A stretch of 64,000 nt of DNA from Thermodesulfobacteriota bacterium (GTDB lineage Bacteria; Desulfobacterota; Binatia; Bin18). The DNA is taken from the NCBI GenBank assembly GCA_964291405.2, contig OZ219926.1, positions 4,640,001-4,704,000 of the forward strand, given 5' to 3'. Both the position numbers and the translations under genes were made by a program. The notes beneath the pieces were generated by a model that ran no database searches, had not been told where the DNA came from, and was given only the letters and a program-made list of their open reading frames with translations. Shown one piece after another: positions 38,525-38,971 of this stretch (its first letter is position 1; the number at the start of each line of letters is the position of its first letter).

Positions 38525-38787
38525 GAAAAAACCCCGACAGTGCTACGTCCGTAAGGACGTCCCGTGGGTGATGAACACGGGCTGCCGGGGCTACGGTGGT
38601 GCCTGGTCCTCCCAAGCGACCACCCGATTTGGGATAGGTCGGCCTAGGAGGCCACCACCTCACTGATCACCGTCGTTGATAACTGCACTAGACCACCTCC
38701 TTTCTCGGCGCACCCAGCGCGGGTCCAGAATCCGCTCAGCCAGGAACCGATCGCCGTTACCGGCCCGAGGCTCGATCCGCTCTGTCC
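38525..38787 (-). ncRNA. Candidate structured small RNA containing an extended SD and a 14-codon ORF (38644-38688)
   Basis: TATAAT at 38794-38799; GCCG-GTAA-CGGC hairpin; AGAAAGGAGGTGGTCTA followed by GTG; several stems; CCCCGGCAG/CTGTCGGGG closing stem followed by U6. Confidence 0.6.
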
Positions 38788-38971
38788 TACCGCATTATAG
38801 GGACAGCAGCGACACGGGCTGTGTCAGCCCGACCGAAAAACTGTCCTTAGCCTACGCCCAAATGTCTCAAAGGTCCAGTGTTCACAAGAGAATACAAAGT
38901 CTGTCACTGTCCTTTTTCTGTACTGACGGCTCTTGCGGATACACGCCGTGCTCTATACAGTCCTGTGAGAC

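Follow-up and report, generated by a model that had tools for sequence, protein, structure and literature searches.

A locus on the minus strand of a 64,000-nucleotide stretch of contig OZ219926.1 (the window; Thermodesulfobacteriota bacterium, class Binatia) carries a sequence complementary to the entire single-stranded 3' tail of the organism's 16S ribosomal RNA (rRNA), followed directly by a 14-codon small open reading frame (sORF). Our reading, to which we give a probability of roughly 0.6, is that this element encodes a stand-alone small messenger RNA (mRNA) of ∼320 nucleotides (nt), running from about 38847 to 38526, that is of the same hyper-extended Shine–Dalgarno (hyper-SD) kind as rreB and rreR, is a distant relative of the actinobacterial small RNA Ms_IGR-5, and serves ribosome-dependent control of its own conformation and half-life. 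An earlier description made from the letters of the DNA (the original prediction) had proposed a structured RNA of roughly 260 nt at this place, and all of the strings quoted in it are present on the minus strand where it had located them.

The Shine–Dalgarno (SD) segment, 38705-38689, reads AGAAAGGAGGTGGTCTA and pairs with the 16S tail of its own genome at 17 of 17 positions (15 Watson–Crick and 2 G-U), confirming the 17-nt complementarity that had been claimed. The complementarity had also been said to run up to the start codon, and it goes one base further: G38688 of the GTG start forms an 18th pair, with the C of CUGGAUC in the 16S tail, for a total of 16 Watson–Crick and 2 G-U pairs. A single 16S gene was detected in the genome, and its 3' end is ...CTGGATCACCTCCTTTCT / ...GCGGCTGGATCACCTCCTTTCTAAG; the 18 paired nucleotides comprise the whole tail 3' of CCTGCGG, which we take to be the last 16S helix. 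The predicted duplex energy is -30.7 kcal/mol for the locus SD with the 16S tail versus -11.6 for the canonical AAAGGAGG. The 17-mer pattern has one match in the window, where shuffles of the window give an expectation of 0.01, and across all 4.95 Mb of the genome the 12-mer AAGGAGGTGRTC is confined to this locus and the ribosomal DNA itself. Relatives carry a perfectly complementary version, GAAAGGAGGTGATCCAG. The elements on which the argument turns are:

38688..38705, minus strand: hyper-extended SD AGAAAGGAGGUGGUCUA, counted with the G of GUG; it can pair with all 18 nt of the single-stranded 16S tail
38644..38688, minus strand: sORF GTG...TAG, 14 codons, MQLSTTVISEVVAS and stop; start and open frame kept across the family
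38656..38664, minus strand: internal SD-like GUGAGGUGG, 8 nt before the stop codon; invariant in 30/30 BLAST relatives
38659-38654, minus strand: GGUGGU, 5' arm of a long-range helix, identified from pair counts in the class alignment and from cross-phylum coevolution
38595..38601, minus strand: anti-SD-like 3' arm CACCACC, which pairs with GGUGGUG of the ORF

To ask which parts of the sORF are maintained, copies were collected by two independent pattern scans. The scan of reference genomes, one per species, required exact AAGGAGGTGRTC, 12-42 nt, GTGAGGTGG, 8 nt and TAG, and the scan of metagenomes allowed TRR at the stop position. Among the matches listed, 154 reference loci reduce to 124 distinct SD-to-stop sequences, and in 124/124 of these an ATG, GTG or TTG lies 4-14 nt past GGAGG in the frame of the stop, with no interruption, compared with 0 and 4 copies for the other two frames. 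The 118 metagenome loci listed reduce to 107 distinct copies with the same outcome (in-frame start in 107/107; other frames 0 and 3). Since the pattern leaves the start codon and the frame free, their retention in every distinct copy shows selection on translation, or at least on a translatable frame. The start codon itself varies (ATG 50, TTG 43 and GTG 31 in the 124 distinct reference copies listed), and the frequent non-ATG starts fit the deliberately weak translation described for rreB. At the stop position, the 107 distinct metagenome copies listed have TAG 91 times, TAA 11 times, TGA 5 times and TGG never; a mechanism specific to release factor 1, which would call for UAG in every copy, was set aside on these counts.

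The peptide behaves differently from the frame that encodes it. Its length ranges from 11 to 19 residues across the family, and its N-terminal half varies even within the genus of the window (MQLSTT, MELSIT, MAISNM and MALTNM). A C-terminal E-V-(A/V) is present in all copies, and its Glu-Val comes from reading an SD-like GAGGUG in which no base, not even at third positions, varies among the 30 relatives recovered by BLAST and not by the pattern. Ahead of the Glu the residue can be R, C, S or G, as conservation of that NGU codon is confined to the GU. These sequences show that selection has kept the start, the frame and the stop, and not the peptide sequence, and the micropeptide that had been offered as a possible product is unlikely to be one. 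The second SD-like motif that had been described inside the ORF is present as GUGAGGUGG and does not vary among the 30 relatives.

The internal SD-like motif overlaps the 5' arm of a long-range helix between GGUGGU of the ORF and ACCACC upstream of the terminator. We assessed helices in an alignment of the class (A1, 20 sequences), taking as support the number of pairs changed on both sides and the percentage of cells paired. For the long-range helix 120/120 cells are paired, and one of six pairs shows a change on both sides, a compensatory U-A to C-G in two relatives (L023 and L025). In other phyla the two arms change together, as GGUGGCUGC:GCAGYCACC, GGUGGCUGUC:GACAGCCACC, GGUGGUCAUC:GGUGACCACC, GGUGGCUACG:CGUAGCCACC, GGUGGUCGCG:CGCGGCUACC and GGUGGUGAC:GUCACCACC. 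Past the invariant GGUGG:CCACC, cognate arms extend the helix by 3.32 nt versus 2.20 ± 0.09 for permuted arms, and 0 of 500 permutations reached the cognate value; an earlier, less strict comparison of cognate with non-cognate arms (3.77 versus 3.37) was too noisy. The original prediction had a GGTGGT in the loop next to hairpin P3 compete with that of the ORF for ACCACC. The competition stands, in that the loop copy could pair in 90% of cells; the ORF arm is the conserved partner, and the loop copy is missing in two relatives (L028 and L030). A pairing of the SD itself with the 3' arm, between the R of GGUGRUC and the Y before CACC, was rejected because the ORF arm accounts for the variation; relatives with GGUGAUC keep CCACC. 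RNAalifold also pairs AGGAGGU of the SD with GCCUCCU at the end of the ORF, in columns that never vary.

Around this core the alignments support further helices, from two upstream hairpins to a branched terminator:

38815..38831, minus strand: hairpin U1, CGGGCU/AGCCCG with loop GACAC; 3/6 pairs covary, 87% paired, 18 sequences
38779..38810, minus strand: hairpin U2, GCU-CUGUCC/GGACAG-AGC, whose loop holds TATAAT; 4/9 pairs covary, 90% paired
38739..38771, minus strand: hairpin P2 of the 5' domain, GCC..GGGCCGGU / AUCGGUUC..GGC with loop AACGGCG; 7/11 pairs covary, 95.9% paired
38641..38653, minus strand: stop-codon hairpin GGCC/GGCC, enclosing the last codons and the UAG; 2/4 pairs covary, 95% paired
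38633-38623, minus strand: hairpin P3, CCC/GGG; 2/3 pairs covary, 78% paired
38624-38619, minus strand: second GGUGGU, between P3 and P4 (the copy missing in L028 and L030)
38617-38601, minus strand: hairpin P4, GCUUGG/CCAGGC; 95.8% paired
38526..38590, minus strand: terminator, a three-way junction with closing stem CCCCGGCAG/CUGUCGGGG and two inner hairpins; closing stem 97.8% paired, 4/9 pairs covary
within 38526..38590, minus strand: the inner hairpins of the terminator; 3/6 and 4/6 pairs covary, 85% and 75% paired
38531-38526, minus strand: run of six U that follows the three-way junction of the terminator

Two of the structural elements proposed earlier, the hairpin that contains the stop codon and the three-way-junction terminator with its U-run, are thus both present and conserved. 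Two others are less well supported: the GCCG-GTAA-CGGC hairpin with its GNRA loop has one covarying pair versus four for the inner part of P2 (GGGCCGGU/AUCGGUUC), with which it conflicts, and for the TCCCAA/TTGGGA stem no more than 69% of cells are paired. In the first inner hairpin of the terminator (38576-38561, minus strand) the loop holds AUCACC, and throughout the class (AU)CACC is kept there as AUCACC, UCACC, GCACC or ACACC, with bases that also stand in the 16S tail; this is a second displayed anti-SD-like motif. A scan with sigma-70 and terminator consensus sequences found no promoter, and it missed the three-way terminator as well.

The 5' end probably lies further upstream than had been thought. 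The original prediction opened the unit with TATAAT (38799-38794), which is not the promoter: a hairpin with covarying pairs (38810-38779) has the hexamer in its loop, and relatives have TGCAAT, TGTAAT or TGCGAT at that position. An RNA-library contig of one relative extends to 38806 at the depth of the body, and others end at ∼38819 and at 38827. Upstream of these ends, the motif T[GA]GAC[CG]-N15-C[GA]TA is found in 24/24 genus loci with identical spacing, 16-18 nt before the first hairpin. More distant relatives show ordinary promoter-like hexamers there, such as TTGACA-N16-TACAAT immediately upstream of U1 in L026. In the window the two halves of the motif are:

38872..38877, minus strand: -35-like TGGACC, first half of the conserved promoter-like motif present in 24/24 genus loci
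38853..38856, minus strand: -10-like CGTA; the predicted start is 6-9 nt downstream, near 38847-38844

Transcription therefore probably begins near 38845 and not near 38790, as judged from conserved sequence, and with a start ∼55 nt further upstream the length is probably ∼320 nt and not 260 nt. The genus motif may resemble the promoters of extracytoplasmic function sigma factors. Together, a structured 5' domain of ∼150 nt and a conserved promoter motif that is not of the sigma-70 type suggest condition-specific expression in this lineage. In copies from Actinomycetota, Acidobacteriota, Zixibacteria and Leptospira, an ACAC leader precedes the SD by a few bases. Because those copies begin so near the SD, the 5' domain is an addition, one that the window's class has in common with Rokubacteria and a few others.

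The original prediction recognised no named RNA family, a statement that no longer stands. At Rfam gathering thresholds, the whole window yields a transfer-messenger RNA and a transfer RNA and nothing at this locus. In a permissive Rfam search the locus matches RF02471 (Ms_IGR-5) over model positions 1-184 of 184, with 27.7 bits (cut-off 45) and an expectation value (E) of 2e-4, and when RF02471 is searched against the whole genome the locus is the only hit at E <= 1 (E 3.9e-4). In addition, rreB and rreR, and the Rfam family RF01867, are of the same kind. The alignment with Ms_IGR-5 is full-length and brings together the SD (AAGGAGGUGGUC), GUGAGGUGG, the UAG and the terminator of the two RNAs, as well as a CACC-containing segment before the G+C-rich terminator, and the same landmarks are found in the Mycobacterium and Streptomyces copies. 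The two RNAs also share the geometry of the sORF, single-copy stand-alone status and a 3' arm, which is GCAGYCACC in Ms_IGR-5 and CACCACC in the window. They differ upstream of the SD, where the actinobacterial copies start with ACAC just before the SD and have their promoter directly upstream, whereas the window RNA has ∼150 nt of conserved covarying structure (two extra hairpins and the 5' domain).

Representative loci of other groups connect the two. RF02471 scores 175.8 bits for Mycobacterium, 63.4 for Streptomyces, 55.9 for Zixibacteria, 36.8 for Leptospirales and 34.7 for a Thermodesulfobacteriota metagenome-assembled genome (MAG), and the intermediates from other phyla (55.9, 36.8 and 34.7 bits) bridge the scores between Ms_IGR-5 and the window; two Acidobacteriota loci, one Myxococcota locus and one Rokubacteria locus gave no RF02471 hit at E <= 0.1. 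Matches below the cut-off were also seen in two of the control genomes, Caulobacter vibrioides and Thermus thermophilus, and not in Corynebacterium glutamicum; those two sub-threshold hits may be the hyper-SD RNAs of these organisms.

Ms_IGR-5, first found in M. smegmatis, was reportedly described by Li et al. in 2013. Several papers since then bear on its expression. Ms_IGR-5 of M. smegmatis lies between MSMEG_5794 and MSMEG_5795, can carry a nicotinamide adenine dinucleotide (NAD) cap and is described as 'validated but yet uncharacterized' (bioRxiv 10.1101/2021.12.14.472595). Both S. lividans and S. avermitilis express it (PMC8079986, PMC8780764), in S. avermitilis it is annotated as a small RNA (sRNA) transcription unit (PMC8780764), and ribosome footprints lie on it in M. 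abscessus and M. smegmatis (PMC4974804). No paper linking Ms_IGR-5 to a hyper-SD or to an sORF was found in the literature searched, which lacks most subscription journals.

The family is widespread. BLAST with 281 nt of the locus matches 33 of 41 genomes, with one copy in each. In the window's genus 23 of the 24 other genomes match, the sole miss being an 81%-complete assembly, and 9 of 16 genomes from the class's other families give a match, with identity down to 71-78%. The pattern scans gave at least 120 loci in reference genomes and at least 118 in metagenomes. The resulting >230 loci come from Actinomycetota, Acidobacteriota, Rokubacteria, Myxococcota, Leptospirales and others. Among the matches listed, and with groups assigned from record titles, the reference scan has at least 91 loci in Actinomycetota, at least 20 in Acidobacteriota, at least 3 in Myxococcota/Bradymonadales, at least 2 in Rokubacteria and at least 1 each in Thermodesulfobacteriota, Zixibacteria, Leptospirales and unclassified bacteria. 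Of 401 genomes sampled from the window's phylum, 5 contain the strict pattern, and these 5 all belong to the 14 of the window's class; it was not found in the other 387, which for an exact pattern is not proof of absence. The sORF of the Thermodesulfobacteriota MAG is nearly identical to one in a genome of the window's class. Across 150 loci no flanking gene family or cluster is common to more than 25, which bears out the description of the RNA as a stand-alone, single-copy, structured transcript and rules out a conserved neighbour or regulated gene as a candidate.

Two individual copies deserve mention. One genome of the window's class (G027) has a copy, L158, that BLAST with the window RNA overlooked and that has the Acidobacteriota-like ending MIDKCCDCEVAET before the stop, not the class-typical ...CEVVAS; this ending could be an old polymorphism or the result of transfer. 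A search of plasmids with the SD and ORF gave short matches only, one of which led to a copy in Leptospira interrogans. This copy (replicon NZ_CP020413.2; L159, 590-760) has a short leader, lies in an unannotated gap and reads ACAC-GAAAGGAGGTGGTCTAGTG; its 16-codon sORF ends in CEVAEQ before the stop, and promoter-like TTGACA and TATTTT hexamers lie upstream.

Contigs from RNA libraries fall on 38494-38827 in 4/4 runs of four studies, one of them at word depth 125, with 95-99% identity. Three of the runs (X1-X3) have no contig on the flanks (38300-38493 and 38828-39000), where uncovered stretches carry no evidential weight, and the fourth (X4) has low-depth pieces of <90% identity on 38327-38450. 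Runs X5-X18, in which the share of words was small, were left out. Neither the strand nor the ends can be read from such contigs, and DNA may be present in an RNA library; their coverage offers modest support for expression in close relatives.

The closest functional precedent is rreB of Bradyrhizobium, a small mRNA of 165 nt in which 17 nt are perfectly complementary to the 16S rRNA 3' end, reaching the first base of a GTG that opens a 14-codon sORF; the sORF of its analogue rreR has 18 codons (Hahn 2016, PMC5711450). rreB is found mainly in the ribosome pellet, co-sediments with 30S subunits and is weakly translated; it becomes more stable once its start codon is replaced, and its function was called 'elusive' (PMC5711450). 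The authors found rreR and other analogues in alpha-proteobacteria only, reported a plasmid-borne rre gene in Azospirillum, and described synthetic RreB and RreR peptides as unstructured and unrelated in sequence (PMC5711450). They also disputed that rreB sequesters ribosomes in bulk, as ribosomes are far more abundant than the RNA and its overexpression left growth unaffected (PMC5711450). The original prediction had listed both binding and sequestering of 30S subunits for the window RNA; the former would fit the co-sedimentation of rreB, and the argument of the authors speaks against the latter (PMC5711450).

The likeness between the window RNA and the rre RNAs extends to several features. 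All are stand-alone small transcripts with complementarity on both sides of AGGAGG (16-17 nt in the rre RNAs and 18 in the window) that ends on the first base of a GTG; their sORFs are of similar size (14 codons in rreB, 18 in rreR and 14 in the window), the SD is partly buried in a hairpin, and the genomic surroundings are not shared between lineages. When the 326-nt window RNA is folded thermodynamically, 12 of its 18 SD positions are unpaired with a probability of <=0.06, much as in the proposal for rreB, where the SD is buried and a short seed stays single-stranded. An rre-type RNA has a promoter and terminator of its own; for the window RNA the terminator is well supported, the promoter motif is conserved, the start is predicted, and RNA-library contigs cover the element. 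There are also differences. The criterion of Hahn was perfect complementarity, whereas the window has two G-U pairs and its relatives the perfect GAAAGGAGGTGATCCAG; the window RNA is about twice as long as rreB, with its 5' domain of ∼150 nt; and outside the SD rreB and rreR have no detectable homology to it in sequence or structure. The internal SD 8 nt before the stop and the anti-SD-like 3' arm, which mark the window's family, are absent from the one alpha-proteobacterial copy that was read.

That copy, from Methylobacterium bullatum (NZ_LR743510.1; L153, 1498-1678), came from a plasmid collection by way of a 32-nt SD query, which returned 811 records (42 from Azospirillum, left out) whose listed hits lie mostly in or beside protein genes, chiefly virB9/virB10. 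It has CGAAAGGAGGTGATCCAGTG, a 24-codon ORF (longer than the 14 and 18 codons of rreB and rreR) and no internal GUGAGGUGG. It matches RF01867 (CC2171) at 84.3 bits, so the alpha-proteobacterial hyper-SD type also has an Rfam entry; on the window, RF01867 reaches 11.2 bits (E 6.4), below its 75-bit threshold.

Several other explanations of the conserved features have to be weighed against this reading. It is unlikely, in our view, that the RNA is a translation-gated riboregulator whose anti-SD seeds (CACCACC, CCUCC and AUCACC) are masked by the internal SD until translation and then target the SDs of mRNAs. The conserved 3' arm does form part of a helix that has to give way to a translating ribosome, the RNA has several SD-like and anti-SD-like motifs, and C-rich seeds aimed at SDs are known from sRNAs such as 6C; however, the covariation of the 3' arm with the ORF arm argues that its main partner is intramolecular, and a short anti-SD seed would pair with almost any mRNA. 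We attach the same low likelihood to a cap or sponge for the 30S tail that acts independently of translation, binding idle 30S subunits to protect, mark or withhold them, with the ORF as an incidental feature. Full-tail complementarity with its predicted -30.7 kcal/mol, the RNA-library contig at word depth 125 and the presence of rreB in the ribosome pellet with 30S subunits (PMC5711450) would all accord with such a role, but a pure binder needs no start, open frame or stop, and these are kept in 231/231 distinct copies listed; the numerical excess of ribosomes over rreB and the lack of a growth effect on its overexpression (PMC5711450) speak against it as well.

The two rivals least compatible with the data are a micropeptide gene and a cis-acting attenuator. 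That a 14-residue peptide with the conserved C-terminus xEV(A/V)xx is the product, with the strong SD driving its synthesis, is very unlikely. The universally kept ORF and the E-V-(A/V) of all copies are what such a gene would show, but the E-V is an SD-like GAGGUG with invariant third positions and a preceding NGU that gives R, C, S or G, the codons after it covary with their RNA partner, the N-terminal half and the length (11-19 residues) vary, and non-ATG starts (74 of the 124 copies listed) and a structured SD argue for low output; the synthetic RreB and RreR peptides were unstructured and had unrelated sequences (PMC5711450). Scarcely probable at all is a leader in which translating the sORF would decide whether transcription passes the terminator into a gene further downstream. 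The short ORF, the alternative pairings and the terminator look leader-peptide-like, and the window RNA has in common with leader-peptide attenuators and the dual-function RNAs derived from them (trpL/rnTrpL, for instance) a short ORF whose translation would remodel downstream pairing, an intrinsic terminator and a largely unimportant peptide. However, it has no regulated downstream gene, the next ORF being convergent and no flanking gene family being shared by more than 25 of 150 loci; it has no run of regulatory codons; its competing helices lie outside the terminator stem and do not overlap it; and in S. avermitilis the relative Ms_IGR-5 is annotated as an sRNA transcription unit (PMC8780764).

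We therefore return to the reading of the locus as a small mRNA whose state depends on ribosomes, for which the following sequence of events may be proposed. In the free RNA, the SD and the end of the ORF would be closed in intramolecular helices of SD with anti-SD mimic. A 30S subunit would invade this partly closed RNA through the extended complementarity and dock very tightly, and initiation and clearance would be slow, weak start codons being common in the family. The translating ribosome would then unzip the long-range helix. When it reaches the stop codon, the internal SD would lie 5-6 nt from the P-site codon, an initiation-like distance, so that the 16S tail could pair again. The prfB (RF2) frameshift site likewise has an internal SD inside its ORF at a fixed short distance upstream of the stop, with 3-nt spacing. 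Both elements are thus SD-like, in an ORF, near the stop and capable of pairing with the tail of the 16S rRNA as the ribosome translates; in the window, however, the spacing to the P-site codon is 5-6 nt and there is no conserved extended frame past the stop. Ribosome traffic would then set the conformation and the lifetime of the RNA, as the effect of the start codon on the stability of rreB suggests, and the likely consequence would be a read-out of free or idle 30S subunits.

A number of points weigh against this reading. What is proposed for 30S binding, translation and decay is carried over from rreB, an RNA with no detectable homology beyond the SD, and the regulatory output is hypothetical, given that rreB overexpression produced no phenotype. 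Ms_IGR-5 is matched with a score short of the gathering cut-off (27.7 versus 45 bits), and the RNA-library contigs cannot tell which strand they come from, where the RNA ends or whether RNA was truly their source. The scans forced the SD, GTGAGGTGG and the 8-nt spacing, which makes the cross-phylum conservation of these elements partly circular; independent of the pattern are only the start codon, the open frame, the identity of the stop and the 3' arm. Kinship among the relatives means that the permutation test on the helix arms overstates, and the invariant helix of the SD with the ORF end is neither supported nor refuted by covariation. UAG is preferred and not exclusive, which makes any version that relies on release factor 1 unlikely.

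The remaining features of the neighbourhood can be dealt with briefly. The element lies antisense within an intergenic gap that is flanked only by plus-strand ORFs: a DNA polymerase III delta-like ORF at 36882-38108, a 115-amino-acid ORF at 38105-38452 and a 293-amino-acid ORF at 38972-39853. The adjacent ORF (38105-38452) is convergent, in agreement with the earlier statement that the RNA has no downstream gene to regulate. Pfam searches gave no match for the 115- and 293-amino-acid ORFs, nor for a 105-amino-acid ORF on the plus strand and a 137-amino-acid ORF on the minus strand at 38250-38663. The 105-amino-acid ORF is taken as a chance ORF. The 137-amino-acid ORF, in the +1 frame of the sORF, begins within the sORF and crosses the terminator, and is probably a chance ORF antisense to the 115-amino-acid gene. 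The TTG start listed for the DNA polymerase III delta-like ORF overlaps a CCG-domain ORF (36176-37063, plus strand) by ∼180 nt, and its real start is probably further downstream. The Rfam matches in the window are a full-length transfer-messenger RNA at 51523-51877 on the plus strand (RF00023, 180.8 bits), 13 kb from the small RNA and with no evident link to it, and a transfer RNA gene at 3795-3868 on the plus strand (RF00005, 63.6 bits).

RNAs of this kind are already in print, as rreB and rreR since 2016 and with Ms_IGR-5 as a relative, so the window RNA is not categorically new. In the literature searched, outside of which most subscription journals lie, several aspects nevertheless appear to be undescribed: the identity of Ms_IGR-5 as a hyper-SD small mRNA, the span of the family over many phyla, the helix of internal SD and anti-SD mimic that defines the family around an ORF kept open but free in sequence, and the 5'-extended variant of this lineage. 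Ms_IGR-5 can now be placed in the same kind, with a hyper-SD followed by an sORF that is kept open, and its family extends beyond Actinomycetota to Acidobacteriota, Rokubacteria, Myxococcota/Bradymonadales, Zixibacteria, Leptospirales and the window's class. What is conserved is the act of translation and an RNA switch of SD and anti-SD mimic, and not the peptide. A bolder version, which we regard as rather unlikely, would have one ancient family in at least seven phyla serve as a reporter mRNA for idle 30S subunits, which would capture the whole 16S tail; a single slow round of translation would then open the helix of internal SD and anti-SD mimic and bare anti-SD-like seeds that act in trans, on the SD sites of mRNAs or on the ribosome, or else the RNA would be destroyed. 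If true, it would tie a cellular response to spare translational capacity, and Ms_IGR-5 and the window RNA would be two forms of one device, with rreB/CC2171 as a convergent or very distant third. With carriers as tractable as M. smegmatis and Streptomyces, the question of what these ribosome-gripping RNAs do becomes testable.

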